Assembly: GCA_002687025.1 (NCBI GenBank)
Contig: NYZG01000444.1
Span: forward strand, 1 to 42,544
Direction: 5' to 3'
From: Candidatus Poribacteria bacterium
Lineage (GTDB): Bacteria; Poribacteria; WGA-4E; GCA-2687025
DNA: 42,544 bases
The notes under the pieces: generated by a model
Databases searched by the model: none
What the model was told of the DNA's origin: nothing
Seen by the model: the letters and a program-made list of their open reading frames with translations, nothing else
Position numbers and translations under genes: made by a program
Part shown: in pieces, positions 15,672 through 36,133 of the stretch
How positions within the stretch are numbered: the stretch's first letter is position 1
How the letters are laid out: the number at the start of each line of letters is the position of its first letter

Positions 15672-16052
15672 ATGCCGCACACCATCCTGCTCATCGAGGA
15701 TGAGCCGGACATACAGACCGTCGTGAAGTTCGCGCTGGAGGCCACCGGCGGGCATGACGTCATCGTCGCGGACGACGGCTTGCAGGGCCTCGAGGCGGCC
15801 CGCACGGAGCGGCCGGACGTCATCCTCCTCGACGTGATGATGCCGCGCATGGACGGTCACGAACTCCTGTGGCTCCTCAAGGCCAGCGACAAGACCAGCG
15901 GCATACCCGTGATCTTCCTATCCGCCAAGGCCCAGCAGAAGGACGTGGAAGCCGGCCTCGACTTGGGGGCCGACGGCTACCTAACCAAGCCGTTCGACAG
16001 CCGAACCCTGAGCGACCAGGTAGACGCTATCGTCAAGAAGGCGCGCGGCTGA
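15672..16052 (+). CDS. Stand-alone response regulator receiver (CheY-like) protein
   Basis: ILLIEDEPD..., phospho-acceptor context ILLDVMMPRMDG, and conserved Lys in YLTKPF. 126 aa with no output domain. Confidence 0.93.
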   Translation: MPHTILLIEDEPDIQTVVKFALEATGGHDVIVADDGLQGLEAARTERPDVILLDVMMPRMDGHELLWLLKASDKTSGIPVIFLSAKAQQKDVEAGLDLGADGYLTKPFDSRTLSDQVDAIVKKARG

Positions 16053-18301: not shown

Positions 18302-20029
18302 TCAGCAGCTTCCCGCGCGATACGCGGCGATCAGGTCCGACACCGCGAGGGCGCGGTCGTAAAGCCTCAGCCGCTCGATCCCCGAGGTCGTGAGGATTCG
18401 GACGGACGCGGTCCGCGCAGCGGCCACGTCCATGTCGGCATTCAGTCTCCCCCAGCCGAACTGCCGATGCTCGCCGCCATCGTTCAGTTTGCCGTCGACG
18501 ACGAACAGCACCTGCCGCGGCCCGGGATCCACGATCACGCCGACGTGGTGCGCGCGACCGGTTTCGAGCAGACCCGGGTCGCATTCCCAGCGGCTCTCGG
18601 CCATGCCATCGCTCAGCATCAGCTCGACCGCGCCCGCGTCTGTGCGTTCCATCGCGATGCCGGAGCCATCCGCGGCGCGACCATCGACGAGCACGCCGCG
18701 CGTCCCGGGCGCGTCGAGCCTGAACCACAGGTCCAACGTGAGCCCAACCCCCGCGTTCACCGGCGAGAGAAGGTCCAGAGTAGACGCGTGAGCGACATCG
18801 GCGCCCGCGACGTCGAGGGTCAGCCCTTCCTGCGTCACCCCGCGACGCGTGAACTGATCCCACAGCCGGTCGAAGAACTGCGGCCGAATCTCATGAACGC
18901 GAGCGACCGTCTTCTGCGTCTCCGTCAGGAAGTAGCGGCCGTCCTGCTCCACGAGGTCGGGATAGCTCATGCGCGTCGCTGGGTCATCGTCGTACAGGGC
19001 GATCTCCGGCTGAGACCACGCGATGAGCTTCCCGTCCGGCGAGTCGATCTCGACGCCTCCGCACATCCACACGGGGTTGCGGCCGAAGTAGTCGCGGCCG
19101 CCGTGATTGTGGAACCAGTAGAGGTACTTGCCGTTCGAGCAACGCCATACGAAGTTCGCGGCCCGCGGATGCTTCATCGGTCGGCCGTCGACGTACGCCT
19201 TGTATCGCGGCTCCGTCCACGTGTGGCCACGGTCACGGCTGTACGCGTGGCACGGCTGACCGTCCACCGTTCGGTAGACGACGTAGAACGACCCATCGCT
19301 CAGGACGCAGTAGCTCTGTTCCTCCGCGATGGGCCCGCCACCGGGCGGCGTGCGCAGGCCGGCGTCGCCATCGGGCAGCGTGTCCCACGAGAGCTTCCCG
19401 ACATCGGGTTCGGTAAGAATGTTCGGGCTGCGGACGAGGACGCCTTCGGAGCGCGTGAAGAAACCGTGCCCGAACCCTCCCACCTTGTGAAGGGACATGT
19501 AGGCGTCGCCGTCGTGCGTGAACGGCCGGCCGACGTTCCAGAAGAAGCGGACGCTCCCGCCATAGGCGTTCGCCCGGTCGATATCGAACTCGCGAACCGG
19601 CATGCGGCCCCGTTCGGCCGACCACGTGCGGCCATGGTCGTCGCTGTGCTTGAAGACGTAGTAGCCGACGGAATCGACGCGCGTACACTTGCCGCCGGCG
19701 TATGGCGGGTCGTCGGCGATCACCTCGCGCCGGTTGTCCGTGTTGTGGTTGTAGAAGCAGTAGACGCGCCCGTAGGAGGTCCTGAGCAGCACGGCGTAGG
19801 ACGCCTCGGGTCCGTCTGCCGGCTCGACAACGGCGCGGTCGCCCCACGTCTTGCCCAGGTCGGTGCTGCGCATCGTGACGACGTGTTGTCCCGGTTGACC
19901 CTCGTGTCCGCCGCCGGTCGTGACGGCGCACAGCCAGGCGCCATCGTCGGTCCGCACGATGTACGGCTGATCGGCATAGGACTCGGTGGGAATCTCCGAG
20001 CCGTTCACGATGTTCCTCGGGTCGCTCAT
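18302..20029 (-). CDS. BNR/Asp-box sialidase-like (exo-alpha-sialidase family) protein fused to a C-terminal LamG domain; no signal peptide
   Basis: AAGGAG 6 nt upstream of ATG 20029 (MSDPRNIV...). Three Asp-boxes: STDLGKTW, SDDHGRTW, SRDRGHTW. C-terminal LamG-type ...HHVGVIVDPGPRQVLFVVDGKL...LRLYDRALAVSDL. The 84-aa upstream ORF extension is rejected. Confidence 0.85.
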   Translation of the reverse strand: MSDPRNIVNGSEIPTESYADQPYIVRTDDGAWLCAVTTGGGHEGQPGQHVVTMRSTDLGKTWGDRAVVEPADGPEASYAVLLRTSYGRVYCFYNHNTDNRREVIADDPPYAGGKCTRVDSVGYYVFKHSDDHGRTWSAERGRMPVREFDIDRANAYGGSVRFFWNVGRPFTHDGDAYMSLHKVGGFGHGFFTRSEGVLVRSPNILTEPDVGKLSWDTLPDGDAGLRTPPGGGPIAEEQSYCVLSDGSFYVVYRTVDGQPCHAYSRDRGHTWTEPRYKAYVDGRPMKHPRAANFVWRCSNGKYLYWFHNHGGRDYFGRNPVWMCGGVEIDSPDGKLIAWSQPEIALYDDDPATRMSYPDLVEQDGRYFLTETQKTVARVHEIRPQFFDRLWDQFTRRGVTQEGLTLDVAGADVAHASTLDLLSPVNAGVGLTLDLWFRLDAPGTRGVLVDGRAADGSGIAMERTDAGAVELMLSDGMAESRWECDPGLLETGRAHHVGVIVDPGPRQVLFVVDGKLNDGGEHRQFGWGRLNADMDVAAARTASVRILTTSGIERLRLYDRALAVSDLIAAYRAGSC

Positions 20030-20105
20030 GTTGAGCTCCTTCAGCGAAGCAGACTCGGCAGTACTCCGACTCGCGGAGTCTCGATGAGCTCGCGCCGGGC
20101 GTCCT

Positions 20106-21152
20106 TCACCGCTTGGCCTCGGGCCCGTCGATGGATCCCAGCGCGCGCAACGCCGGAGACGCCGCGCCGTGCGCGTCGAAGAGCGCGTTCCGGCCGCCGT
20201 ACCAGATATGCAAGCCGTGCGTGGGGATGGACTCCGGGTACCACCACAGGACGCCGATCCCGCGGCCGTCGGGAGTCGCACGAACCGTTGCGATCAGCTC
20301 GCTCAGGAAGTCGCGTTGGCCGTCGGGGGTCGTGGGCCAGCGCATGCGGGCCTTCCAGCCGTCGGCGGCGCGGAAATCGGTTGTCGCGTAGGGATACGCG
20401 GTCTCCACGAGCAGAATGTCCTTGCCGAAGTCCCGGGAGGCGGCTTCGAGGTTCTCCCGCACGTCGTCCATCGACCCGTGCCACCAGGGGTAGTAGCTCA
20501 GCGCGATGACGTCGTAGTCGATGTCATGCTCGGCGATGTGATCGAAGAACCACTTCGTGGCGCCGCGGCTGGCTCCCTTGTCGATGTGCAACGCTACGCG
20601 GGCCTCCGGCGCGGCAGATCGCACGCCGTCCACGCCCGCGCGGAGGAGGCGCGCGAAGTTGTCCCACTGTTCGTCGGGGTCGCCCGCGTCGTAGAGCTTC
20701 CCGTCCGGCCACAGCATGCCGGGCGTTACTTCGTTGCCCACCTGCGCGATGTCCGGCGCGGCTCCGGCTTCGGCGAGGGTTGCGATCGCCTCGACGGTGT
20801 GGTCGTGGACGGCAGCCGCGAGCGCGTCCAGATCGAGATCAGCCCACGCCTTGGGTTTGTGCTGATGCGCGGGGTCGGCCCACGTGTCCGAGTAGTGGAA
20901 GTTCAAGAGGAAACGCGCGCCTGCGTCCTTGATCCGCTTCGCGAGTTCTGCGGTGTACGGCAGGTCGTTCACGACGACGCCCTGGTGATTCGGGGCCACG
21001 AACAGACGCAGTCGGAAGCAGTTGCAGCCGTGACGGCGCATTATCGCGATGGCATCGTCGGGCTTCCCACCATCCGTGTAGCGCGCGCCCTGGCGTTCGA
21101 GGCGTCTGAGCGCGGAGATGTCACCGCCGATGAGGAAGTCGGGAGATGTCAC
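20106..21152 (-). CDS. Glycoside hydrolase family 53 (arabinogalactan endo-beta-1,4-galactosidase); no signal peptide
   Basis: GGDISALRRLE..., FRLRLFV, FHYSDTWADP, acid/base context VGNEVTPGMLWP, nucleophile context LLVETAYPY. GTG start at 21152. Confidence 0.88.
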   Translation of the reverse strand: MTSPDFLIGGDISALRRLERQGARYTDGGKPDDAIAIMRRHGCNCFRLRLFVAPNHQGVVVNDLPYTAELAKRIKDAGARFLLNFHYSDTWADPAHQHKPKAWADLDLDALAAAVHDHTVEAIATLAEAGAAPDIAQVGNEVTPGMLWPDGKLYDAGDPDEQWDNFARLLRAGVDGVRSAAPEARVALHIDKGASRGATKWFFDHIAEHDIDYDVIALSYYPWWHGSMDDVRENLEAASRDFGKDILLVETAYPYATTDFRAADGWKARMRWPTTPDGQRDFLSELIATVRATPDGRGIGVLWWYPESIPTHGLHIWYGGRNALFDAHGAASPALRALGSIDGPEAKR

Positions 21153-21739: not shown

Positions 21740-22804
21740 CTAACTCGTCTCCGTCCATGCGTCGCGGAACAGGCGAATCCAATTCCCGTGCATCACGCCT
21801 TCGACATCGGCTTCGGTGTAGCCGCGCTTGCGCAGCAGGTCGGCAATCTTCTGGAGGTCGGCGATGGTGTCCAGGTCGTGCGGCGTTTGCTCCGTGCCGT
21901 ATCCCCCGTCGAGGTCGCTTCCGATACCGGCATGGCGCGCGTTCCCGGCGAGCTGGCACACATGGTCTATGTGATCGGCCACTGCCTCCAGGCTCACGAC
22001 TTCCGGCTGTGTCCGCTCCTTGATCCAGCCCTCGTAGAGCATCCACGCGTCCAGGGCCGCGCCGATAACGCCTCCGCGCTCGATGACCGCCTTGAGCTGA
22101 TCGTCGGTGAACTGCCGCCCCCCGGACACGAGCGCGCGGCAGTTGTTGTGGCTGGCCAACACCGGGCCGTCGAACGCCTCGACCGCCTCCCAGAACGCCT
22201 GATCGGCGAGGTGCGTCAGGTCGAGGATCATCCCGACGTCCGCCATCGCGTCCAGGAGTGGCCGGCCAAGATCGGTGAGACCGCCTTCCGTGCCCGTGCC
22301 GTGCGCGTAGGCGCTGACCCCGTAGTGCGACGGCCCGACCACGCGCAGCCCGTCATCCCACCAGGAAGCGACCTGATCCGGCGACACGATGGGATCCGCG
22401 CCCTCCATGCTCAGGATCATCCCGAGCGGCGCCTCGGCAGCAGACGCACGCCAGTCGGTTAGCTGGGCGTCGAGGCCCGGGGCATCCGTCACCATGCGGA
22501 TCTTCGCCTGAGACTCCAGCACGCGGTAGTAGGCGAGTTGTCCCTGCGCGTGGGCGTACGAGATCTCCTGGCAGGCGGAGCCCGCGGCGTCGCTCTCGGG
22601 CCGCGCCGTGCGCGCGATGACCGTCACGACCGATAGGCCGACCTCGGCCTTCCGCATCTCGGGCAGCGTGGTCGTGCCACACGCTCGGCCTTTCTGCGAC
22701 ATGTCTCGTTCGTGTTCCCGAATCGCGTAGACGTCGAGATCGAGATTCCGGTCCCAATTCAGTGCGTTCATGGCGAGATCGAGGTGCGCGTCGACAAGCA
22801 GCAT
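21740..22804 (-). CDS. Membrane dipeptidase family (peptidase M19) protein
   Basis: AGGAGGAG upstream of ATG 22804. MLLVDAHLDLAMNAL... and GIGSDLDGGYG match the M19 signature regions. Confidence 0.8.
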   Translation of the reverse strand: MLLVDAHLDLAMNALNWDRNLDLDVYAIREHERDMSQKGRACGTTTLPEMRKAEVGLSVVTVIARTARPESDAAGSACQEISYAHAQGQLAYYRVLESQAKIRMVTDAPGLDAQLTDWRASAAEAPLGMILSMEGADPIVSPDQVASWWDDGLRVVGPSHYGVSAYAHGTGTEGGLTDLGRPLLDAMADVGMILDLTHLADQAFWEAVEAFDGPVLASHNNCRALVSGGRQFTDDQLKAVIERGGVIGAALDAWMLYEGWIKERTQPEVVSLEAVADHIDHVCQLAGNARHAGIGSDLDGGYGTEQTPHDLDTIADLQKIADLLRKRGYTEADVEGVMHGNWIRLFRDAWTETS

Positions 22805-23208
22805 GGCGTCTCCTCCTGTACGCGACACTATCTCATGTGCGGGCGCGTGAGACACGATCCGCTCCGGCCCGCCGTCTCACGCCGCTGTAGGCGCCACTCG
22901 CCGTTCGCCGCGGTCGAAGCATCCCACGCCTACCTGCGCCTCGTGTGCGATGCCATCCGTCCTCTCGGCGGGCGCCCGCGAGAAACGGGTGCACGGATGT
23001 GTCGCCGCGTCCCACTATACCCATGCCGTGTGCGTGCCGGAGCGTGCTGTAGAAGTGCCCGGCGCGACCGAAATCTCCCTACTACCAAGGGGGATGGGCG
23101 GCTGTTCGTGATGAGGCCCGGCGCGAAACGTGCATCCACGCGTACGTGAAATAGGGCATACTGTGCCCCGCGCGATCGCGCCCGTCCGTCAAGACCAGGG
23201 TGAGTTGC

Positions 23209-25170
23209 ATGATCTTCGTCAGACGCGCGCTTCTGCTTGCGACGTGTGTCGCGGTGGCGGGAGCCGCTCATCAAGCGCACGGCCAAGAGGTGTACAGCCT
23301 CTTCGGCAAGCTGTTTCTGTCGGGTCGTGTCGAGTACGACTTCACGCAGCGCCGCGACTTCCTCACCGACGTCGAGGACCATCACGTCCAACAGAACGAG
23401 TTCGACTTCGACCGCATCTTCCGGCGCGGCTTCCACAGCGTGATGATCATCGAGGAACAGGCGGGAGCTACGAAGAACATCCTCAGCCTCGGTGAGGTGC
23501 CCACTACCTTCACGCGTCTGAGCTTCGACCAGGTGGACATGACGGGCGTACGCTGGGATGTGCGCGGCAAACGCACCGACTGGTCCGCGATCATGGTCCC
23601 CGGCTCTCTGAACCCGGTGATTGGGCAGGAACACATCACGGGGTCCGGCGTCGGTCTGCGTCAGGTGACGAAGACGTCCCGTGCGAAGTACGGCGCGGCG
23701 TGGTACTTCCGCGAGACGCCCGTCCTGTCGGTCGACGTCGAGGCGAGCTTCACAAACATAGGCCGCAAGGCGGAGTTCGCGATCACTCCCAAGGGCTCCG
23801 TGACGAACGACCTGCGAGGACGCGCCGACGCGTCGGCCGCGGTTTACAAGGAGTTCCACACGATCGGCGACACGATCGTCCAGTTGGAGGCGTTCCGCGT
23901 CGGCCCTCACTTCGACGCCTCACGATCCGTCGGCGACAACGACGACCAGGACCGTTATACCGACAACACGCCGTTGGACCCACCGTCGAAGATCATCCCG
24001 GGAGACCTCGACAAGAACGACAACGGCGTCTTCGACTACGAGGACGATGTCCTTCTGTTCGACGTCGACGAGGACTTCCTGGACGAAGGAGACCGCAACA
24101 ACAACGGCGTCCGCGATCAGGAAGAGAACGACAAGGACCCGAACTACGAATTCGACGCGGCCAGACGCGGCCTGCGGCTGTGGCTGACGCGGCGGAAGTC
24201 CACGCGCGACACGGCCACGGACGTGGACCTCGGCGTGCGCTACGAGACCACCCTCGGCGACGAGGATGTCACGCCGCACGCGACGGCGACAAAGCTCTTC
24301 TCGAACGTCGAACACCGCCGAACCGTCGGGAAGGCGTCCGTGTTGCAGCTCGACAACGAGCTGAAGTACGTGCGAGACGCGATCCCCGACGAGACGTGGC
24401 ACTTCGCGGCGCGGCTGAGCCCCGCGGAGGCCGCGGCATATCGCGCCCTTCCCAAGACGGCCGCCCTCGAAGCGGCGGGCGAGATTGGCTTCCTCGAATT
24501 CGAGGGCGTCACCGAGGTCGAGCGCAGACGCCGCGACCCGATCTCGATGCAGAACGACATCATCAACACGACCAAGCTGACGTGGGAATACTCGGGGATA
24601 CGACAATTCGTCGCGACGGCCCGTGCGAAGCTCCAGTACGACCTGGACATCGACGGAGAAGACGAACAGTACGAGGTGGGCATCCTGAAGGCGCGCTACA
24701 CATTCCGCCCGTCGAAGAAGCTCGAAGTCAGTCCGATGCTGAAGTACACCGTCCGCGACGGCTTCCGGCGGGACGAGGCGCGCCTGGAAGATGTCGCCGT
24801 CGCGGATTTCGTGACCGGCGATGACGGAATCGAGGTACCCAGCGAGGTAGAACGCGTGCGACTGCGGCGCATCGACGAGACGGACGTGCGCGACATGGCG
24901 ACGGCTGTCATCCTCCGCGTCGAGAACCAATTCACGCCGACTATCCGGCTAACCGGCGGCGTGCAACTGCTCCTGTTCGACGATCTGCTGGAAGACGACA
25001 ACGACTTCATCCGGCAGGCGGTGCTCGCCGAGATGGAGAAGAGCTTCCAGGCATACAACCGCGACATGTTCCTCCACATCGGCGCGCGGTACATCGATCA
25101 GCGGGCGCGAGGCGACCTGAACGACGCGAACTTTATGGAGACCTTCGTCCGCGTTTTCGCGAAGTTCTGA
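23209..25170 (+). CDS. Outer-membrane beta-barrel protein (uncharacterised family) with an acidic thrombospondin-type-3-like Ca-binding insert
   Basis: Signal peptide MIFVRRALLLATCVAVAGAAHQAHG/QE. Alternating-hydrophobic strands throughout. Terminal ...ETFVRVFAKF (C-terminal Phe). Acidic insert at nt 23935-24156. The ORF is also open from GTG 23200. Confidence 0.8.
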   Translation: MIFVRRALLLATCVAVAGAAHQAHGQEVYSLFGKLFLSGRVEYDFTQRRDFLTDVEDHHVQQNEFDFDRIFRRGFHSVMIIEEQAGATKNILSLGEVPTTFTRLSFDQVDMTGVRWDVRGKRTDWSAIMVPGSLNPVIGQEHITGSGVGLRQVTKTSRAKYGAAWYFRETPVLSVDVEASFTNIGRKAEFAITPKGSVTNDLRGRADASAAVYKEFHTIGDTIVQLEAFRVGPHFDASRSVGDNDDQDRYTDNTPLDPPSKIIPGDLDKNDNGVFDYEDDVLLFDVDEDFLDEGDRNNNGVRDQEENDKDPNYEFDAARRGLRLWLTRRKSTRDTATDVDLGVRYETTLGDEDVTPHATATKLFSNVEHRRTVGKASVLQLDNELKYVRDAIPDETWHFAARLSPAEAAAYRALPKTAALEAAGEIGFLEFEGVTEVERRRRDPISMQNDIINTTKLTWEYSGIRQFVATARAKLQYDLDIDGEDEQYEVGILKARYTFRPSKKLEVSPMLKYTVRDGFRRDEARLEDVAVADFVTGDDGIEVPSEVERVRLRRIDETDVRDMATAVILRVENQFTPTIRLTGGVQLLLFDDLLEDDNDFIRQAVLAEMEKSFQAYNRDMFLHIGARYIDQRARGDLNDANFMETFVRVFAKF

Positions 25171-25180
25171 CAGGATCTGA

Positions 25181-25852
25181 ATGCGACGTATGGCCAATCT
25201 GGCGACGATAAGCAGGTCGGAATTCCTGCGCCTCCTGGGCATCTCCGGTGTGGCGTTTGCGCTCGGGGAGACTGCTGCCTCGGGTTCGCCGACGGTGGTG
25301 CGGTGTCAGCTGACGCCCAACGTGCTGCTTGTCGGCCGCCGCAACGTCTTCCGTGCGCATGTGTCCGGCCTCGGCGACGCGCCGTCGAGGGCGTCCTGCA
25401 TGGGTCTCCAGTCCGCCGGCAGGCCCGCCGTACGCGGCGAGGTGACTTTCGACTTCGACGGCGTCGTGCAGCCTACGCTTGAGGCCGCGGGGGGAATAAC
25501 GCGCGTCGCGGTGCACGGCCCGGACTTTCGCGGCAATGCCCCAGTGATGCTGGTGCGGCCGGAAGCGTGCCTTATCTACCGGACGAGCGTTAGGGGCCGG
25601 AAGGCGTGTCCGAGGTGTCGGGACCACGCGGAGAACGTCGTGTACGTGTCTCGTCAGGCCGCCGAGGAAGGGCGCTGTCATCCGCGGTGTCGCTGTCCGA
25701 TCGTGTCGGAGAAGGCGCACTGGGAGGTCTTCGCACGCGCCTTCTGGCCCACGGGGCCGGGCGCGGGAGTTCTGCATGACCGCCGCTGGGGGTGGCCGGC
25801 CCCGGCTCCGGTTGGGCTCGCGCTGCAAACAGTTTCAGGACCAAGGGGGTAA
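25181..25852 (+). CDS. Exported (Tat-like signal) hypothetical protein with an Ada-N-terminal-like Cys/His motif
   Basis: AGGA 5 nt upstream of the ATG, 10 nt after the OMP stop. N-terminus MRRMANLATISRSEFLRLLGISGVAFALG. Motif CPRCRDHAENVVYVSRQAAEEGRCHPRCRCP (nt 25607-25696). Third-position G/C bias favours this frame over the antisense ORFs. Confidence 0.65.
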   Translation: MRRMANLATISRSEFLRLLGISGVAFALGETAASGSPTVVRCQLTPNVLLVGRRNVFRAHVSGLGDAPSRASCMGLQSAGRPAVRGEVTFDFDGVVQPTLEAAGGITRVAVHGPDFRGNAPVMLVRPEACLIYRTSVRGRKACPRCRDHAENVVYVSRQAAEEGRCHPRCRCPIVSEKAHWEVFARAFWPTGPGAGVLHDRRWGWPAPAPVGLALQTVSGPRG

Positions 25853-25909
25853 TACCCGGGGCTCCTGCCAGACAGGACGCCTCGGGGGCTGAGTCGCGCT
25901 GTCGTCATC

Positions 25910-25937
25910 TGTACCTGGCGAGCATACGCCAGGTACA
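25910..25937 (+). terminator. Perfect 11-bp hairpin TGTACCTGGCG-AGCATA-CGCCAGGTACA; possible terminator or attenuator
   Basis: Located 58 nt after the stop at 25852 and 65 nt before ATG 26002. A short GGTTTTAG follows 7 nt downstream, so the U-tract is displaced and weak. Confidence 0.45.
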
Positions 25938-26001
25938 AGAGTGGTTTTAGCCCGCCTCGGCCTCCCTTTTTCGTTCGCTTCCAGGATGGAGCTAACCGAC
26001 C

Positions 26002-29000
26002 ATGCGACGCGCCGTTGTCCGAGCGCTGCTCCTGATGTTCGCCGCCGTCGTCGTGGGCTGTTCGTCGCATCCGTCGGCACGCTCCCCGAGCGGGTCTAGC
26101 GAACCCGCGTCTGCCGCGGCTGCCGCGCCCGCCGCGTCGAAGGCGGATACTCAGCGGACGCTCATCAGCAACCGCGTCCGAGCGATATCGGCCGACGCGA
26201 CGAACGTGTGGATAGCCACCGACCGAGGCGTGTCCAGGCTCGTGCGGGCCACGGGCAATTGGATGCACTACACGCAGGACGACGGCCTCGAGTCCGACGA
26301 CGTGCGTGATGTCGTCGCCGACGACCGCGCGGTGTGGTTCGGCACGCGGGCAGGCGTGAACGTGTACGACGTGCAGGCGGACACGTGGCGCACGTTCCAG
26401 GAACGAGAGGGCGTCGGAGCCAACGACATCAACAAGATCGCGCTCGACGACCAGTACGTCTGGGTCGGCACCGCCTACAACGGCGTCAGTCGCTACGACC
26501 GGCGCACGGAGAGCTGGGCGGTGCGGAACCGCGGCGACGGCCTCTCTCAAGACGGCGTGACGGCGCTTGCCGTTGGTCGGGACTCCGTGTGGGTGGGCAC
26601 GTACCGCGGGGCCAATCGCTATGACAGCACGACCGATTCGTGGAACGTGTATCAACGGCAGGACGGCCTCGTGGAGGGCGCCACGGCCGCCATCGGCATC
26701 GCGGACAACCTCGTCTGGCTGGGCTCCGAAGATAGTGGCATCAGCGTATACGACGAGGTCAACAGATCGTTCGTGCAGACCTTCACGAAGTCCGACCTGC
26801 TCAACAGCGACGACATCACCGCGATCCTGAGCGACGGGTCGAGCATTTGGATCGGCGCGGGCAACGGCGGCGCTCAGCGATACATCCGCGCCGTCGACTC
26901 GTGGATTCAGTACACCACCGACGACGGTCTTGCCAGCAACCACGTGAGCGCCATCGCCGTCCACGGCGATGAGGTGTGGCTAGGGACGCGGGACAACGGC
27001 GTCAGCGTCTACGACAAGGTCCGCAACCGGTGGACTCACTACGCCAAGGCCGACTCCCCGCCGGAGGAGGAGATCGTCGACATCGCCGAAGACGCCGACG
27101 GCGCGGTGTGGCTCGCGACCCCTCGCGGCCTGTACCGCCACGAGCCGTCGACCGACGCATGGACGCGTTTTGGCAAGAGAGACGGCCTGCCGACCGAGTA
27201 CATCACAGCCGTGGAGACACGAGGCGACGTCCTGTGGGTGGGCACGTCACGCGGGCTCTCGCGGGCCCGACTGCGCGATGGGGCTCTTGTCGTCGAGGAA
27301 GTCGCCGCGGCCGGGCGCTACATCACGGCGCTCGCCCACGCCGCCGATGGGCTGTATGTCGGCGCCGATGACGGTCTGTACCAACGGGACGCGGAAGGCA
27401 TCGACCACGCACTGCCCGACGGCGCAGGTCAGCGCGTCCTCTCCCTGACGGCTGGCGAGCGCGGCGTCTGGGTGGGCGCGGAAGACGGCGCATACCTGGC
27501 CGGCTCGGAGCCCGGCCGCCTGACCCGCATATGGACTCGGAGCCCGGTGAACGACATGGCTGAGGCGAATGGCGCGGCATGGCTCGCGACCGACGATGGT
27601 CTGGTCCGACACGACTCGGAAACTGGGGTCACGATTATCCCCGTCGGTCACCGCCGCCGGCTGACGAGCGTTGTGCGCGGGGCGGATGGCAAGACGATAT
27701 GGCTCGGGTCGCCGTCCGGCTTGGGCTCCCTGGATAGTGCGACGCTGGAGGTCACTGCGGCGCCCGTCGCGGGGTTGTCGATTCGCTCCCTCGCGTCACG
27801 CGCAGACGGCGGCTTGTGGATAGGCGCGACGAACGGCCTCGCCCATCTCGATCCGACCGATGGCGTGGTCAGTCACGACGCGTACGTCGTCCGCGACCCC
27901 CTCGTCGAGGACAGCGCCGCCCACATCACGTACGACGGCGACTACATCTGGTTCTCGAACTGGGTCAAGTCGGTCAACGGCGCGATCGTCCGTCACGACC
28001 GCCGTGACGGGACATGGCGCCGGTTCACCCGCGAGACGATCCTAGGCACGACGCGCGCGAAGGCGCCGACCGAGGTGAAGCGCATCGTGGCCGCGAACGG
28101 ACGCGTCTGGTTCGCCACCGACTACGGCGTGCTGAGGTACGACCACGCGTCAGACGGCTGGCGTCATTACACGACCGCCGACGGCCTACAGTCGAACAAC
28201 GTGCGCACGCTGGCCGTCTCGGACAACGTGGCGTGGGTCGCCTCGGAGTTCTCGACACGCCTGAGCCGGCTCGACATCGCCAGCGACGAGTGGTCGCGCT
28301 TCCGGCCGTCGCGTCTCATCCACCCGCGCAACTATGTCTACGACATGAGCGCCGACGCCGACGGCGTGTGGCTCACGCTGAGCTCGTCGGGCGTACGGCG
28401 GTTCGGCGAGGATGGCTCCGAGACTGTCCACATGAAGGATGACGGCCTCGCGCAGACGGGCGCACGCTGGATCGAGGTCGAGGGCCACCGCGTCTGGGTC
28501 GCGCACTGGAATGGACGCGGGAACGGCGCGCTGTCGATGTACGACAAGCACACGGGCGTGTGGACCGTGTACTCCGACGGCGATGTGCTCGAACAGGACT
28601 TCGTCTCCAAGGTCGTCGTCGGCGATCAGTACGTGTGGATCCTCTACGACGAGTGGCAGGAGGGCAGCGTCACGGGGTACCACCGCAAGACGGGCGAGTG
28701 GCTCACCATACGCCCGCGGGAGGAATGGGGAGCGCAGGTCGTCGAGGCGTGGGAAGCGGGAGCCTTCCTTTGGCTCGCGGCCAGGCAGGGCGGCGTCCAT
28801 CGGTACCATCTCGCCTCGGGCACGTGGGCGCGGTTCAGCCAGGAGAACCATCTCCCCATCGACGTCGTCGGCGAGCGAGGCCTGAACGGCGACGACACCT
28901 ACGCGTGGATCGCGACGCCAGCGGGCATCGGCCGATACAACATAGCCTCCTGGACATGGACGATATTCCGCAGCCGCGAGCAGATGACCGGCGCCGAGGT

Positions 29001-30177
29001 CCGGGCCGTCGCTGTCGACGAGCGTTACGTCTGGACCGGCACGAGCGAAGGCATCTCGCGCTACGACAAGATGTACGGCGGCTGGCGGCCGGTACGCTGG
29101 TTCAGGACCATCGCACACGTTCGCGCGCTGACCGTCGATCCGCGCTACCTGTGGGTCGGCACGGGTCAGGGCGCCTACCGGTACGACAAGATCACCGACC
29201 GATGGTGGAACTTCCGCGTGTGGAACGGGCTACCGAGCGACACCGTGTCCGCTATCGCCGTAGACGAGACGGACGTGTGGATGGGCACGACCCGCGGCGT
29301 GGGCAAGTTCACGCGCCTATCCGATGATCGCAACGCGTGGGTGTCGTACACGGCGGCGATGGAACTCACCGCGGACGAGCTCGACCGGGAGTACTCAGAG
29401 ACGCTGGTGTACAACGACGTGTGGTCCATCGCCGCGCAGGGAGATGAGGTGTGGATCGGCACACGGCTAGGAGCCAGCCAATACCACGACCGACGCGACC
29501 TGTGGCGCACCTTCACGACGGAGAACGGGCTGGCCGACAACGTGATCAGCGCCGTCGCCGTCGATGGCGAGGACGTCTACTTCGCGCACAACGCGGGCGT
29601 GTCCGTCTACCACACGGGCGCCGACTCGTGGGACACCTACGCCAACTCCGATGGGGGCCCGCTGGTCAGCCAGCGCATCACCTCGGCGGTGGTCGGCGCC
29701 GAAGCCATCTGGTTCGGCACGTTCGACGCGGGCGTCATGCGTCTGGACAAGACCACGCGCGAGTGGACGCGACTGAGCGCCGTCGACGGTCTGCCGCACG
29801 ACAACGTCCTGTCTCTCGCGGTGGACGGCCCCGTGCTGTGGGTTGGTACTCAGCTCGGCCTCGCGCGGTACGACACGCTTACGCGGGGCGTCGCGACGTT
29901 CACGCCGTACGGCGACTCCGAGGACCTGCGACACATGGTCGTCACGACCGCTCCGAGCGACGCTTCGGGCGACGCGTCAGCCGAAGCGTCCGAGGGATAC
30001 GGCGGCCCGGTCGTCGGCAACCGGCAGAGCCGCAAGTACCACTTCCCGGGCTCGCCGACGGCCGATCTCGTGAAGCCGTCGAACCGCGTGCAACTCGGGT
30101 CCGTCCGCGAGGCAGAGGAAGCCGGGTACGATCGCGCGGGGAACTTCGCGGAACCTGGTGTTGAGCCCTCGCGCTGA
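26002..30177 (+). CDS. 1391-aa lipoprotein with about 29 'two-component regulator propeller' (Reg_prop) repeats. No TM, kinase or cyclase output. C-terminal Cys-less Ada-like motif.
   Basis: GGATGGAG upstream of the ATG. Lipobox MRRAVVRALLLMFAAVVVG|C. Repeats have the form VW[VI]GT..G[VL].RYD, e.g. VWFGTRAGVNVYD, VWVGTAYNGVSRYD, LWVGTGQGAYRYD. The repeat count was made by hand. The tail is KYHFPGSPTADLVKPSNRVQLGSVREAEEAGYDRAGNF. Confidence 0.9.
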   Translation: MRRAVVRALLLMFAAVVVGCSSHPSARSPSGSSEPASAAAAAPAASKADTQRTLISNRVRAISADATNVWIATDRGVSRLVRATGNWMHYTQDDGLESDDVRDVVADDRAVWFGTRAGVNVYDVQADTWRTFQEREGVGANDINKIALDDQYVWVGTAYNGVSRYDRRTESWAVRNRGDGLSQDGVTALAVGRDSVWVGTYRGANRYDSTTDSWNVYQRQDGLVEGATAAIGIADNLVWLGSEDSGISVYDEVNRSFVQTFTKSDLLNSDDITAILSDGSSIWIGAGNGGAQRYIRAVDSWIQYTTDDGLASNHVSAIAVHGDEVWLGTRDNGVSVYDKVRNRWTHYAKADSPPEEEIVDIAEDADGAVWLATPRGLYRHEPSTDAWTRFGKRDGLPTEYITAVETRGDVLWVGTSRGLSRARLRDGALVVEEVAAAGRYITALAHAADGLYVGADDGLYQRDAEGIDHALPDGAGQRVLSLTAGERGVWVGAEDGAYLAGSEPGRLTRIWTRSPVNDMAEANGAAWLATDDGLVRHDSETGVTIIPVGHRRRLTSVVRGADGKTIWLGSPSGLGSLDSATLEVTAAPVAGLSIRSLASRADGGLWIGATNGLAHLDPTDGVVSHDAYVVRDPLVEDSAAHITYDGDYIWFSNWVKSVNGAIVRHDRRDGTWRRFTRETILGTTRAKAPTEVKRIVAANGRVWFATDYGVLRYDHASDGWRHYTTADGLQSNNVRTLAVSDNVAWVASEFSTRLSRLDIASDEWSRFRPSRLIHPRNYVYDMSADADGVWLTLSSSGVRRFGEDGSETVHMKDDGLAQTGARWIEVEGHRVWVAHWNGRGNGALSMYDKHTGVWTVYSDGDVLEQDFVSKVVVGDQYVWILYDEWQEGSVTGYHRKTGEWLTIRPREEWGAQVVEAWEAGAFLWLAARQGGVHRYHLASGTWARFSQENHLPIDVVGERGLNGDDTYAWIATPAGIGRYNIASWTWTIFRSREQMTGAEVRAVAVDERYVWTGTSEGISRYDKMYGGWRPVRWFRTIAHVRALTVDPRYLWVGTGQGAYRYDKITDRWWNFRVWNGLPSDTVSAIAVDETDVWMGTTRGVGKFTRLSDDRNAWVSYTAAMELTADELDREYSETLVYNDVWSIAAQGDEVWIGTRLGASQYHDRRDLWRTFTTENGLADNVISAVAVDGEDVYFAHNAGVSVYHTGADSWDTYANSDGGPLVSQRITSAVVGAEAIWFGTFDAGVMRLDKTTREWTRLSAVDGLPHDNVLSLAVDGPVLWVGTQLGLARYDTLTRGVATFTPYGDSEDLRHMVVTTAPSDASGDASAEASEGYGGPVVGNRQSRKYHFPGSPTADLVKPSNRVQLGSVREAEEAGYDRAGNFAEPGVEPSR

Positions 30178-30187
30178 CGCTTCGGGC

Positions 30188-30775
30188 TCAGCCGTGGCCG
30201 GTCGCGGAAGGCCACGTCTCCGGCGAGAACGGCCATCCGATCCGGCGACAGATGTCCTCCCATCGGCCGGACATGTCGTCCGCGTACAGCAGCGGATGGA
30301 AGCCGACGCGCAGGTACGTCTTCAGCGCGGCGAGCCTGAAGTCCTCGCTGTAGAGGTCGATCTTCTCATACCCCGCCTCGATAAAGCGCGACACCACGGC
30401 CGCCGTCAGGGCCTTCCCGATCCCACGCCCACTATGCGCCGGGTCGCACGCGAGCCAACCCAGGTTCCCCCAGAAGGGGGTGACCCGCTTGTAGTTGTGC
30501 AGGCACATCGCCGTGCCGACGGCTATGTCGGTGTCCCGAGAGGCGACCACGAACCAACCGCGCGGGATGACCTTCGAGAGTGTTGGGCGCAAGCGGCCGC
30601 CGTCCCAGCCCGGCCAGCCGGCGAGGTCCATGATCTCGTAGAACCGACGCTCGTCGTCGGCGGGCGCGTACTCGCGAAGGACGTACTCGGCAGGTAGCTC
30701 CACGGTCGGAGGACACGCGACACGGGACGCCGGCCACACCATCCTCAACTGCGCTAGCGATTCGTCCCAGCCCAT
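30188..30775 (-). CDS. GNAT family N-acetyltransferase
   Basis: Acetyl-CoA motif A context CDPAHSGRGIGKALTAAVV. ATG 30775 lies 7 nt after the M14 gene stop. The Arg-rich 29-aa ORF extension is rejected. Confidence 0.8.
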   Translation of the reverse strand: MGWDESLAQLRMVWPASRVACPPTVELPAEYVLREYAPADDERRFYEIMDLAGWPGWDGGRLRPTLSKVIPRGWFVVASRDTDIAVGTAMCLHNYKRVTPFWGNLGWLACDPAHSGRGIGKALTAAVVSRFIEAGYEKIDLYSEDFRLAALKTYLRVGFHPLLYADDMSGRWEDICRRIGWPFSPETWPSATGHG

Positions 30776-30782
30776 GCCGCGC

Positions 30783-32435
30783 CTACGCCTCGCACGCGAC
30801 GGCGACCGACTGTGCGCCGCCCTTCTCACTGTGGATCTCGACGTCGCACGTCGCCGCCTCACCGAGACGCACGATCCACTCGGCTTTCTTGCGGCCTCCG
30901 TAGCCCGCGAGATGCCCGAGCTCCTGCTTCGGCGCGCCTGAGACGATCTCGGCGTCGGCCGGCAGTGAGATGGTCGCCGTGACCTGCTTCGCGACGCCCA
31001 GGTCCACCGCGCGACGCGTAATGCTCGTCGGGAGGTACCCGCTGTTCACGACCGCGACCGAGACTCGCCACACGCCGTCGCCAAGCGACTCCGTCTCATG
31101 CACGCTCGCGGAGACACGCGGCAGCGACTTGGCGTGTGCGAACGTGAAGTCGTGGATGTTCCGGCACGTCTCTTCGAGACACTCAAAGGGCGAGTTGTTC
31201 CCCAGCAACGGACGCCATCCTCCGAGCTCCACCGGGCCCAGTTGCGGATGCTCGAACGGCGTCCATCGAATGAACCCGTCCTGCTCCAGCGTCTCATCCG
31301 TCCAGCGCAGCATGTCCAGGTGCATCTGTTCTAGGCCCGCGTGGTCGCGCTCCTTCTCCATGCGGTTGACTTCCATCGGCTCGGGGTTCCCGCGCGCGCG
31401 CATGTCCCACAGTTCGTCGCAGTAGTAGAGGAGGCCGAGGTGGTGGTACGCCCACGCCGCGTGGTCGCCGTACGCCTCGTAGATGTTCTTGTACAGCTCG
31501 TTGTAGGAAAACATCGCGTAGCCGGTGCATTCCTTGCCGTAGTTCCCGATGTCGAGCAACCGCGCGACGTCCTCACGTGGAATGTCGTCGTCGCTTTCGC
31601 TGCACGGCACGCGGATGATCGCCTCGAACCCCGTGTGGAAGCTGTGCATCCCTCCGATATTCGGATGTGCCTTCACGAACTCCGCGATCGCGCGCGTCTC
31701 GGGCTCCGAGAACGGCCAATCTCCCGCGCCGCCCTGCTGAGACCCGATGCGCCAGTTCGACGGGAAGTTGCGATTGAAGTCGAGCCCCTGCTTCGCCGGC
31801 GCGCTTCTGACCTCCACGCCGTCGAAGTTGCGGATCGATCCTTCCTGATACACGCGATAGAACGGGCCGCCCGTGTGGGGTAACGTGTCGTTGAACTCGC
31901 GAGGGATCATCAGCCGGTCGTCGTGTTCCGACACCTTCCATCCACCGGTGTCGTCCTCGATTCGCATCTGGAGGATGCGGCCGTCGCCGTCCACGTCGTC
32001 CGGGTAGAGGCCGTCCTTCTCCTCCTCGTGCGGATACAGACGTGTCCCGCTACGCACGCGCCCCGGCGTGGACAGGCAATGCTCCACGCCGTCCGGGCTG
32101 ACCATCGGGATCAGGTAAAACGCCGTGGTGTCGAGCATCGCGGCTATCTCGGCGTCGTCCGCGTGGCCGCTCAGCAGTCGCCACGCGATGTAGAGACACG
32201 ACGTGCACGCCGTCACCTCGGAGCCGTGGATGTTCGCGTCGATGTAGAGCGCGGGCTTGTTCAGCGCCGCGCCCGTGTCCGCGTTCGTGACGGTGAGCGC
32301 CGGAATGTCGCGGCCCTCGTAGCTCTGCCCGATGACCTCGACCCGCGCGAGCGTGGGGAACTCGTCCGCGAGCTGCGCGAGCAGTGCCACCATCTCGTCG
32401 TAGCGGTAGTACTTGTCGAAGCGCGGCGCTTCCAT
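30783..32435 (-). CDS. M14 family zinc carboxypeptidase, cytosolic (no signal peptide)
   Basis: YYRYDEMVALLAQLADEFP...VIGQSYEGRDI...ALYIDANIHGSEVT (HxxE zinc motif). Confidence 0.88.
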   Translation of the reverse strand: MEAPRFDKYYRYDEMVALLAQLADEFPTLARVEVIGQSYEGRDIPALTVTNADTGAALNKPALYIDANIHGSEVTACTSCLYIAWRLLSGHADDAEIAAMLDTTAFYLIPMVSPDGVEHCLSTPGRVRSGTRLYPHEEEKDGLYPDDVDGDGRILQMRIEDDTGGWKVSEHDDRLMIPREFNDTLPHTGGPFYRVYQEGSIRNFDGVEVRSAPAKQGLDFNRNFPSNWRIGSQQGGAGDWPFSEPETRAIAEFVKAHPNIGGMHSFHTGFEAIIRVPCSESDDDIPREDVARLLDIGNYGKECTGYAMFSYNELYKNIYEAYGDHAAWAYHHLGLLYYCDELWDMRARGNPEPMEVNRMEKERDHAGLEQMHLDMLRWTDETLEQDGFIRWTPFEHPQLGPVELGGWRPLLGNNSPFECLEETCRNIHDFTFAHAKSLPRVSASVHETESLGDGVWRVSVAVVNSGYLPTSITRRAVDLGVAKQVTATISLPADAEIVSGAPKQELGHLAGYGGRKKAEWIVRLGEAATCDVEIHSEKGGAQSVAVACEA

Positions 32436-34609: not shown

Positions 34610-36133
34610 ATGCGTAGATTCCCGTTACCGGGTCGACCGTGGGTTTGGACGTTGGTTCTGGCCGCCGCTGTCGCCATGTCCGCGGACGTTGCGCGCGCGC
34701 AGGGCAGCGAAACCGAGGCGAACGACACCGCGGCGAGCGCGAACGTGATCCCGACCGATGGCTCCGTATGGTCCAACGCATTGGGAACCGGTACTGATGT
34801 CGACTTCTTCCAGTTCGTCGCGACTGCTGGTGAGACGTACACGATCACGACGAGCAATCTGGGCGTCGATGTCGATACCGGCCTGGAGCTCTTCGATATC
34901 GATCCCGATCCGGGCGGCATCGCGCCGGTAAGTGACAGCTTCGGAACCGGCGGCGCCGGCTCCCAGATCGTCTATACGGCGGTATCGGCCGTGACACACT
35001 ACGTCAGGGTCTATGGGTTCGTGCAAAACGCAGGCGTCTACGACCTCAGCGTTTCGGCGGGTGGCGCGCCGGTCGTGCCCGACCTGAACGTATTCGGCGT
35101 CTCCGTCCTCGAGGGCAACGACGAGTTCACGCCGGTGTTCGCCGCCGTGTCCGTGGAGCTGTCCGAACCGACCACCGTACCCGTGACGTTCGACGTGTCG
35201 CTGACCCCGGTCACAGCCACCGACGGGGACACAGACTACCTCGAATTGGCGACGCCATCTGTCTCAATCCCGGCCGGGGACGCTTCCTACGTCATCAACG
35301 TGACGATCGTCGCGGACGCCATCGCCGAGTCGGTTGAGACGTTCGACGTCAGTCTCCTGAATGTCGACGGCGCGAACCCCGTCACTACGACTGCGACGGT
35401 GACGATCGAAAACGACGACCTCCTGCAAGTCCTGATCGAGTCGGATGCCAACGCGGATGGGTCTCCCGACGCCGGCGGGCCGGTGTACATCGTCAACGAG
35501 TTCAACGACCCGAACTCCACGATCAGCTTCGACGTGCTCGGGGGCGTCGGACCGTCTTACACGCTTAGCATCGTGAGCACGCCATCGCTCGGGAAGCTCA
35601 TCGACCCGAACGGCAGCGTCGAGATGTTCGCGGGCGAGTCGCGCGCCATCAGCGAGGGCGGGCTGCTGTTGGAGTTCGCCGGCACGCCGCAGAGCTCCGG
35701 CAGCTTCGAGCCGTCGGACGCGTTCATCATCACCGTTACCGACGACGGCGATGCGTCGCTCACGTCGGGTTCGGTCATCGTCGAGCTGAGCATAAACGAC
35801 GTGAACCAGTCCGTGGTCGTGGACCGCGAAGGGCTCGCGTTCGTTGCATCCGGGAGCGTGGTGAACCTGCCCATCGTCGACTTGACGGACATCGACTTCG
35901 ACGAGATCCCAGATCCCAGCATCTACGATCCCGACGGCGACAGCCTCGCGTTTGCGAACCCCGTGTCCAGCCTGGGCGCGGAAGTGTGGGTAGCGGGCTC
36001 TTCGTTACGCTACGAGGCCCCGATCTACAACGATGTCGCCAGCGCCGGGGGCCCGCTGACGGACACCGTCACGCTGGAGGTCTCCGACAACAGCGGAGCC
36101 CCAGCGCCCCCGTCACGGCGAGCCTGTCCGTGA
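34610..36133 (+). CDS. Large secreted adhesin-like protein, N-terminal part (signal peptide, PPC pre-peptidase-C-terminal-like domain, Calx-beta-like domain, cadherin/VCBS-like repeats), terminated by a frameshift
   Basis: GGAGAG 6 nt upstream of ATG 34610. MRRFPLPGRPWVWTLVLAAAVAMSADVARAQG. PPC-like ETEANDTAASANVI...DVDFFQFVATAGETYTITT. Calx-beta-like VSVLEGNDEF...VTIENDD. The frame ends at TGA 36131-36133, just after a C5 run. Confidence 0.8.
   Translation: MRRFPLPGRPWVWTLVLAAAVAMSADVARAQGSETEANDTAASANVIPTDGSVWSNALGTGTDVDFFQFVATAGETYTITTSNLGVDVDTGLELFDIDPDPGGIAPVSDSFGTGGAGSQIVYTAVSAVTHYVRVYGFVQNAGVYDLSVSAGGAPVVPDLNVFGVSVLEGNDEFTPVFAAVSVELSEPTTVPVTFDVSLTPVTATDGDTDYLELATPSVSIPAGDASYVINVTIVADAIAESVETFDVSLLNVDGANPVTTTATVTIENDDLLQVLIESDANADGSPDAGGPVYIVNEFNDPNSTISFDVLGGVGPSYTLSIVSTPSLGKLIDPNGSVEMFAGESRAISEGGLLLEFAGTPQSSGSFEPSDAFIITVTDDGDASLTSGSVIVELSINDVNQSVVVDREGLAFVASGSVVNLPIVDLTDIDFDEIPDPSIYDPDGDSLAFANPVSSLGAEVWVAGSSLRYEAPIYNDVASAGGPLTDTVTLEVSDNSGAPAPPSRRACP

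Follow-up and report, generated by a model that had tools for sequence, protein, structure and literature searches.

What does a protein built almost entirely of Reg_prop propeller blades do at the cell envelope when it carries no output domain, and with which of its neighbors does it work? The question is raised by a three-gene block in DNA of a Candidatus Poribacteria bacterium (GenBank assembly GCA_002687025.1, contig NYZG01000444.1, positions 1 to 42,544 of the forward strand, hereafter the window). The block encodes, all on the plus strand, a 653-aa outer-membrane barrel (ORF1), a 223-aa Cys/His-rich protein (ORF2) and the 1391-aa propeller protein (ORF3). Poribacteria are abundant, uncultured bacteria of sponges and the ocean, and their cell-surface biology has been inferred from genomes alone. 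A first-pass annotation had read the block as an envelope trio that could be either an outer-membrane-associated binding or scaffold complex or a sensor signaling through partner proteins. We find that two of the three genes, encoding the giant barrel and the lipidated multi-propeller protein, make up a two-gene outer-membrane module that is conserved across Poribacteria.

The conserved unit is a barrel-propeller pair

We compared gene order by tblastn over 80 GTDB species loci of Poribacteria (L numbers are our locus labels) and took counts from the 76 that had enough flanking DNA. A propeller gene stands beside the barrel gene in 73 of these, in two gene orders. It lies immediately upstream of the barrel on the same strand at 67 loci, within 3.2 kb upstream at five, and downstream with the small gene in between at one (L011, a sister of the window); it is absent at three. 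The called propeller and barrel genes of L004 overlap by 4 nt. Only in the window's clade does the order run barrel, small protein, propeller, and close relatives there keep the full layout of a minus-strand M19 gene followed by these three. The conserved unit is therefore the pair and not the trio that the first-pass annotation had proposed; the trio represents an elaboration, specific to one clade, of a pair found phylum-wide. The linkage has survived a change in the order of the genes, which makes a good case for a functional, and probably physical, partnership between barrel and propeller.

Barrel homologues number more than 200 in Poribacteria (58-98% identity), and in an exhaustive search the full-length family formed a single cluster at 50% identity. 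Each listed genome holds one 653-aa ortholog, and full-length identity across the phylum stays at 58-62%, even between genomes of 45% and 67% GC. A single ortholog, with its identity kept across such a shift in base composition, suggests that the pair has a housekeeping, core-like character.

The propeller partner is a predicted lipoprotein without an output domain

The 1391-aa protein is predicted to be a bacterial lipoprotein. Its lipobox fits the pattern [LVI][ASTVI][GAS]C, a low-complexity Ser/Ala/Pro tether follows Cys20, and the lipobox Cys is kept in nearly all full-length homologues, as one would expect from the lipobox that had been picked out at first pass. A repeat hidden Markov model (HMM) made from the protein itself gave 29 non-overlapping matches of about 42 aa each, the same number of blades that had been counted by hand, and 29 blades would suffice for about four seven-bladed propellers. 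Pfam returned Reg_prop at E 1.6e-32, together with DUF5074. Neither Pfam nor NCBIfam returned a Y_Y_Y, transmembrane, kinase, GGDEF, HTH or receiver domain, in line with the earlier remark that a transmembrane helix and an output were missing. The protein was accordingly rejected as a hybrid two-component sensor: Reg_prop repeats are present, but the Y_Y_Y domain, transmembrane helix, kinase, receiver and DNA-binding output are not.

The listed homologues, which are 34-100% identical and, where complete, 1350-1550 aa long, share this character. A kinase or cyclase at their C-termini had been named at first pass as a sign of truncation; a signaling domain occurs in none of the 120. Because all 120 have the output-less architecture, the propeller protein is not a truncation or an assembly artefact. 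Its best solved relative is the sensor domain of BT4663 (PDB 4A2L, E 3e-33), and the PorZ model NF052228 matches it partially (E 1.5e-18; 66.7 bits with a cutoff of 260). One clade has two tandem propeller genes before the barrel gene (L014, L015 and about 20 more loci, e.g. L015 2-6880); these paralogs are 35% identical to each other, and neither has the C-terminal domain (CTD) that marks type IX secretion system (T9SS) cargo.

The end of the propeller protein varies by clade. In most homologues nothing follows the last blade, and one clade has a lamin-tail domain in place of the tail seen here, which is limited to two clades, the window's and one other. This tail resembles the NCBIfam 'sunset' domain (NF051437), an Ada-Zn-finger-like C-terminal module, at E 0.0018 when the whole protein is searched and 2.5e-05 when the tail is isolated. 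All 11 tails tested matched the model (best E 8.3e-10); the window copy, at 24.2 bits, falls just below the cutoff of 27. Unlike the Ada zinc finger, the propeller tail is Cys-less: compared by eye with what we take to be the E. coli Ada motif, the Cys positions are H, S, A and F, and Pfam Ada_Zn_binding (PF02805) gave no match. The first-pass annotation had described a degenerate Ada-like motif here that recurs, with its cysteines intact, in the small protein. The first part of that description agrees with the match of the 11 tails to the sunset model only with the qualification that the window copy stays below the cutoff. The second part is not supported by profile comparison: aligned by hhalign, the small protein and the sunset tail gave a probability of 0.3%, and the shared motif rests on by-eye resemblance over about 20 residues only.

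The barrel belongs to a superfamily without annotation

Several features predict that the 653-aa protein is an outer-membrane beta-barrel. A signal peptide can be read from the sequence at about residues 1-25, and the C-terminus FVRVFAKF is a beta-signal in which F646, V647, R648, V649 and F653 are invariant in 36 homologues; the signal peptide and the C-terminal Phe signature claimed earlier are thus both borne out. A first AlphaFold model, built on the 36 close homologues only, reached a predicted local distance difference test score (pLDDT) of 55 and gave generic Foldseek matches, and it was replaced. The final AlphaFold2 model, from a 70-sequence alignment that includes distant relatives, has a pLDDT of 85.3 and a predicted TM-score (pTM) of 0.81, and is all-beta, with about 26-30 strands and without a separate periplasmic domain. 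All 50 of the PDB matches listed by Foldseek for this model are outer-membrane barrels (probability 0.99-1.0), with the largest barrels at the top ranks: Deinococcus SlpA, MtrB (TMq 0.34) and LptD (0.30). With TM-scores no higher than 0.34, the barrel has no close solved relative.

Sequence searches of the barrel found no Pfam or NCBIfam family at E values up to 1 and no PDB match at E values up to 10. The first-pass annotation had raised the prospect that the barrel or the small protein would fall into a well-characterized family with an unrelated role; no such family was found for either in Pfam, NCBIfam or the PDB sequences. Specific identities were rejected as well: LptD (no family-profile match, no OstA N-domain), a TonB-dependent transporter (no profile match, no plug domain or TonB box), PorV/PorQ or PorP/SprF (no NCBIfam or Pfam match at E up to 1) and a porin-cytochrome barrel (no defining domain or motif).

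The exhaustive search also recovered about 100 distant, colinear relatives of 650-1150 aa, which have in common with the barrel the N-terminal strands, an acidic insert, the central strands and the C-terminus. Those named come from Spirochaetota, Gemmatimonadota and unclassified bacteria, and include one Poribacteria paralog. Nine of the distant relatives, searched in turn, matched nothing in NCBIfam, and in Pfam gave only one sub-threshold match to DUF2490. The poribacterial paralog (P0290 / P0411) is 1117 aa long.

The acidic insert is nearly invariant in 36 Poribacteria barrel sequences, and D276, D295, N297, N299 and D303 are invariant in all 70 aligned sequences, distant phyla included. 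In the AlphaFold barrel model it is a non-strand segment. Judged from these alignments, the insert is a signature of the barrel superfamily. A relationship to thrombospondin (TSP) type 3 repeats had been suggested for this loop, but at E values up to 1 neither Pfam TSP_3 nor EF-hand matched. What the insert has instead are two EF-hand-like loops of 12 residues, DKNDNGVFDYED and DRNNNGVRDQEE, both of which, as read from the sequence, fit the EF-hand loop consensus D-x-N-x-N-G-x-x-D-x-x-[DE]. The insert may therefore bind calcium.

Relatives of the barrel are encoded beside type IX sorting genes

We surveyed the context of distant barrel relatives at seven loci (L007, L008, L010, L094, L096, L097 and L098). 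At all seven, a secreted protein with a T9SS-type CTD at its end is encoded within one to four genes of the barrel relative. Among the cargo are carbohydrate-binding-module (CBM) or lectin proteins, along with glycoside hydrolases or lyases, an FG-GAP protein and cell-wall amidases. At four of the seven, a PorV/PorQ-family gene adjoins or overlaps the barrel relative. Three of these genes were scored with the family model NF033709 (cutoff 90 bits), at 181 bits in L094, 151 in L007 and 40.2, below the cutoff, in L008; the fourth, in L097, was called by a local HMM at 138 bits. The overlap with the barrel relative is 26-29 nt in L008 and L097. In Spirochaetota, Gemmatimonadota and other MAGs the barrel superfamily is thus recurrently associated with genes of T9SS sorting, a link that the first-pass annotation had missed.

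A Gemmatimonadota-type contig (L010 5279-15785) holds three tandem barrel-superfamily paralogs of 905, 908 and 965 aa. Genes for CTD-bearing discoidin-type lectins lie one upstream of the adjacent first two barrels and one before the third, a layout that suggests barrel partners specific to their cargo.

Poribacteria themselves encode a PorU sortase (Peptidase_C25 290 bits, T9SS_sortase 408 bits, with a type A CTD of its own) and a PorV-family protein (101-107 bits, cutoff 90). The presence of both genes means that T9SS-type sorting exists in the phylum, for which our literature search found no report of type IX secretion. PorU and PorV lie 1-5 kb downstream of the barrel gene at 12 of the 80 species loci, all in one related clade (L025, L019, L020, L023, L024, L028, L033, L035, L041, L044, L046 and L051); at a thirteenth, L026, PorV alone is seen, at the edge of the locus. 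Two secreted CTD proteins are encoded in the window itself, with the signature NYPNPFNPETWIP...RRMV[IV][LM]K and 53-70% identity between the copies and to L004. One has cohesin and choice-of-anchor D domains, the other only a FlgD_ig-type tail. The propeller protein was not among the matches listed for a local CTD HMM made from 10 CTDs.

A small protein and a structured RNA are additions of the window's clade

The small protein has only eight homologues (63-91% identity), and its ORF is conserved in length and sequence, with many invariant residues, in eight other assemblies. Among the fetched loci, its gene adjoins the barrel gene only in the window's clade (L001-L003 and L011). C143, C146, H149 and A150 are invariant in the nine sequences, and the Cys/His motif, itself invariant, may bind metal. 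The signal had been called Tat-like, but no twin arginine is present: the sequence ISRSEFLRLLG has an R-S that is invariant in nine of nine sequences and an h-region, and within S-R-S-E-F-L-R a Ser takes the place of the second Arg in all nine, so that Tat export is unproven. No Pfam or NCBIfam model, sunset and Ada_Zn_binding included, matched the small protein at E values up to 1, and its PDB matches were chance hits to antibody framework.

Between the small gene and the propeller gene lies a structured RNA element, with a U-rich tract behind it. The element begins at the small gene's stop codon. The z-score of its minimum free energy is -4.67. It is 90-91% identical in nucleotides to its counterparts in L001 and L011, whereas the coding DNA on either side is only 69-82% (L001) and 78-90% (L011) identical. 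Of 42 predicted pairs, with 98% of cells paired, seven show compensatory changes, and none of 500 shuffles equaled this pairing and covariation. Rfam gave no match, and a covariance model found the element in no Poribacteria outside the window's clade. Copies were located at L001 10679-10807, at L011 9643-9770 and 9941-10069, and in L091, L092 and L093. In L011 and L091 a tandem duplication takes in the element and the 3' end of the small gene; L093 has a second, cut-off copy of the element. One possibility is that the element serves the propeller gene as a terminator or attenuator under unusual constraint; another is that it is an RNA of the 3' untranslated region.

We picture the history of the window's high-GC clade as an inversion of gene order in which the small gene and the structured RNA would have been inserted between the members of the pair. 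The small protein is probably an accessory subunit specific to the lineage, and the RNA probably a regulatory or terminator element.

The locus and its surroundings

The features discussed here are collected in Table 1. The spacers between the three genes are 10 nt (ORF1/ORF2) and 149 nt (ORF2/ORF3), and GC content at third codon positions (GC3) is 0.85, 0.78 and 0.86 for barrel, small protein and propeller, each in the right frame; coordinates and GC3 bear out the three same-strand genes as they had been drawn. Both neighbors are on the minus strand, again as described, and beyond the GNAT gene lie genes for M14 and then M3 peptidases. A promoter scan found no sigma-70-like promoter, and a terminator scan found terminator-like sites no more often than background.

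Table 1. Coordinates of features in the window and, where a locus label is given, in a related locus
Feature	Position	Strand	Basis or remark
Secreted CTD protein	145-2007		Poribacterial T9SS type-A-like CTD
Stand-alone response regulator	15672-16052		10 kb from the block, not syntenic
M19 dipeptidase	21740-22855	-	Flank, barrel side
ORF1, predicted outer-membrane beta-barrel, unannotated superfamily (653 aa)	23209-25170	+	ORF, GC3, homologues, AlphaFold2 model
Acidic insert, aa 232-318, between two barrel strands	23902-24162	+	Alignments, AlphaFold model
ORF2, exported Cys/His-rich protein specific to the window's clade (223 aa)	25181-25852	+	ORF, homologues
Motif C143-x2-C146-x2-H149 ... H167-x2-C170-x-C172	25607-25696	+	Alignment
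Conserved structured RNA, 129 nt	25850-25978	+	Fold energy, covariation, covariance model
ORF3, Reg_prop propeller lipoprotein (predicted), no output domain (1391 aa)	26002-30177	+	ORF, Pfam, homologues
Lipoprotein signal peptide, lipobox VVG/C (Cys20)	26002-26061	+	Pattern read from sequence
29 tandem blades, aa 57-1303	26170-29910	+	Self-derived repeat HMM
Cys-less 'sunset'-like domain, aa 1339-1379	30016-30138	+	NCBIfam NF051437
GNAT acetyltransferase	30188-30862	-	Flank, propeller side
Secreted CTD protein	35986-37875		Poribacterial T9SS type-A-like CTD
Adjacent PorU (1555 aa) and PorV/PorQ-family barrel	L025 10085-15873	-	

The window holds many genes for the degradation of glycans and peptides (GH123, GH53, BNR, LamG, peptidases). 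The longest ORF of a BNR/LamG gene (18302-20281, minus strand) overlaps a GH53 galactanase ORF (20106-21152, minus strand) by 176 nt, and the BNR gene probably has its true start further downstream than this ORF does. The 80 genome loci that the barrel protein recovered all belong to metagenome-assembled genomes (MAGs) of Poribacteria, and ORF3 is 100% identical to a hypothetical protein of Candidatus Poribacteria (NCBI CMK11_21850); together these identify the source organism as a poribacterium of an unusually GC-rich clade. The computed GC content of the window is 67%, and that of its clade is about 67%, compared with 43-50% in eight other Poribacteria loci measured.

Discussion

The closest functional parallel that we can offer for the barrel-propeller pair is the attachment complex of the T9SS. 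In Porphyromonas gingivalis, PorZ consists of two Reg_prop-type propellers and binds anionic lipopolysaccharide (A-LPS), and in a PorU/PorV/PorQ/PorZ complex it is positioned, along with PorU, on the barrels PorV and PorQ (PMC8545088). The PorZ propellers are structurally similar to BT4663 (PMC8545088; PMC5562754). The pair resembles PorZ and PorQ in several respects. Its propeller protein is likewise a Reg_prop-type multi-propeller of the glycan-binding type; PorZ is held at the outer membrane by a barrel, as we propose for the pair; Poribacteria also encode a PorU sortase, PorV and CTD cargo; and PorV/PorQ-family genes and genes for CTD cargo stand next to those for relatives of the barrel. 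The differences are equally plain. The propeller protein has 29 blades (about four propellers) to the 14 of PorZ, and would be anchored by an N-terminal lipid rather than by a retained CTD. At about twice PorQ's size, the barrel is also unrelated to it in sequence. The barrel and propeller genes are adjacent, whereas porZ and porQ are presumably unlinked in P. gingivalis. With no CTD, a score below the PorZ cutoff and an unrelated barrel, the pair belongs to neither the PorZ nor the PorQ family.

We suggest, tentatively, that the pair is a PorZ/PorQ-like glycan-binding surface module serving T9SS-style sorting, a reading that may well be right although we would stop short of calling it probable. 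The barrel would dock the propeller lipoprotein at the outer membrane, and the propellers, by analogy with the homologous propellers of BT4663 and PorZ, would bind a glycan polymer or glycolipid. The module would serve a type IX-style pathway of PorU sortase, PorV shuttle and CTD cargo, playing the role of PorZ held by PorQ, that is, presenting an anionic glycolipid for ligation to cargo. Of the two proposals made at first pass, the outer-membrane-associated binding or scaffold complex remains the best description, given the linkage of barrel and propeller at 73 of 76 loci, with the correction that the trio is not the unit.

Several observations weigh against a PorZ/PorQ-like role. The propeller protein lacks the CTD of PorZ and, at 66.7 bits, stays far below the PorZ cutoff of 260; any Reg_prop protein gives a partial match of that kind. 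No similarity links the barrel to the PorV/PorQ or PorP/SprF families. The adjacency of PorU and PorV is limited to one related clade, where the orientation is convergent, and may go back to one historical event, and CTD proteins may be so common in these genomes that some of their adjacency is due to chance. Moreover, three of the distant loci are sugar-utilization loci that encode LacI, glycoside hydrolases and a sugar symporter as well as fucose/rhamnose catabolism, and because of these an uptake role fits equally well.

Other known systems offer partial parallels. BT4663 (PDB 4A2L/4A2M) is the closest solved sequence relative of the propeller protein, with the same Reg_prop blade, and binds glycan. 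Unlike BT4663, the propeller protein has no Y_Y_Y domain, transmembrane helix, kinase, receiver or AraC output, has twice the blades, is a predicted lipoprotein and is partnered with an outer-membrane barrel. SusCD and BtuB-BtuG also pair a large outer-membrane barrel with a surface-binding lipoprotein encoded next to it (BtuG is a seven-bladed propeller lipoprotein), and relatives of our barrel occur in sugar-utilization loci. The pair differs in having no TonB box, plug, or match to Pfam TonB_dep_Rec, SusD or BtuG, and in being one conserved poribacterial ortholog rather than many paralogs. MtrCAB and LptDE contain barrels of similar size, among the best fold matches of ours, and the trio of the window's clade (barrel, small exported Cys-rich protein, lipoprotein) mirrors the layout of MtrB, MtrA and MtrC. 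The window trio has no CXXCH haem motifs and no sequence relation to these systems, however, and the TM-scores with MtrB and LptD are too low for us to claim a shared family. Our literature searches found nothing relevant on the sunset domain, on Reg_prop lipoproteins or on a regulator propeller in Poribacteria.

The parallel with SusCD and BtuBG leads to the most serious competing explanation, that the module captures and imports nutrient glycans. The propeller would be a surface lid or binder of polysaccharide fragments from a host or from algae and the barrel an uptake channel, the two forming a non-TonB analogue of SusCD or BtuBG. The homology of the propeller to the glycan-sensing domain of BT4663 agrees with this, as do the distant relatives found near LacI, GH144-like, GH3, GH42 and beta-helix lyase genes, at loci where no TonB-dependent transporter was seen; the lyase locus also has a fucose/rhamnose aldolase, an isomerase and an SSF symporter. 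The window itself is rich in GH123, GH53, BNR, LamG and peptidase genes. One barrel relative, from an unclassified bacterial MAG, has ExbB-ExbD-ExbD genes immediately upstream of it (L096 7200-11568), a hint that some members of the superfamily may be energized. Against import, there is a single ortholog of about 60% identity phylum-wide and not a multitude of substrate-specific paralogs; its neighbors in Poribacteria are not conserved degradation genes; the barrel has no plug domain or TonB box that we could find; and the context in L094 is one of cell-wall amidases, with no sugar locus. We consider import somewhat unlikely on balance. A role in envelope biogenesis or structure apart from the T9SS, such as the export or anchoring of a polysaccharide or surface layer, or an outer-membrane tether in which the acidic calcium loop would stabilize the envelope, would account for the phylum-wide, core-like conservation. 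The best fold matches, Deinococcus SlpA, MtrB and LptD, are very large barrels that carry partners, and a Poly_export gene lies near the barrel relative in L096. Those fold matches are weak (TM at most 0.34) and generic, though, no sequence relation to the LptD, Wza, AlgE or SLH families was found, and the recurring CTD cargo and PorV neighbors of the relatives would go unexplained; such a role seems to us distinctly unlikely.

Signaling is harder still to reconcile with the data. Reg_prop propellers are best known as domains of hybrid two-component sensors, and a stand-alone response regulator is encoded in the window (Table 1), so one could imagine that the propeller detects a ligand and signals via separately encoded partners, the second of the first-pass proposals. 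The regulator is 10 kb away and not syntenic, though, and no signaling gene is conserved nearby: in the annotated loci, no kinase or regulator is conserved beside the pair. What is conserved as a partner is an outer-membrane barrel. Throughout the listed propeller family there is no signaling domain, the window protein has no transmembrane helix, and nearly all full-length members have a lipoprotein signal. We regard an output-less sensor as very improbable. That the propeller is a truncated or misassembled sensor kinase, or that the small ORF is no gene, is hardly credible, even if the GC3 of the small ORF (0.78) is below that of its neighbors. An independent NCBI record matches the propeller exactly, the propeller architecture is shared by 120 of 120 listed homologues (34-86% identity), and the small ORF is kept in eight other assemblies; on the strength of that conservation and of the output-less architecture of the homologues we reject the artefact.

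In summary, we have identified a core envelope module in nearly all species of Poribacteria. One half of it is a large-barrel superfamily that is without annotation in Pfam, NCBIfam or the PDB, and the other half indicates that Reg_prop propellers, usually annotated as 'sensor' domains, also occur as stand-alone lipoproteins. Outside the Bacteroidota, the barrel superfamily is a candidate for an outer-membrane part, be it missing or alternative, of type-IX-like secretion and attachment. It is tempting to go further and to speculate that the superfamily (650-1150 aa) is an unrecognized outer-membrane component of type-IX-like sorting beyond that phylum, either a compact conduit for cargo together with PorV, as the gene overlap with a PorV-family gene in L008 and L097 might suggest, or an anchor for surface-attached proteins, with the single conserved Poribacteria ortholog coupled to a lipidated four-propeller analogue of PorZ. 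We think this bolder proposal unlikely as a whole, but if it is true, the block in the window would be the first view of a divergent T9SS attachment or translocation module in an uncultured phylum.

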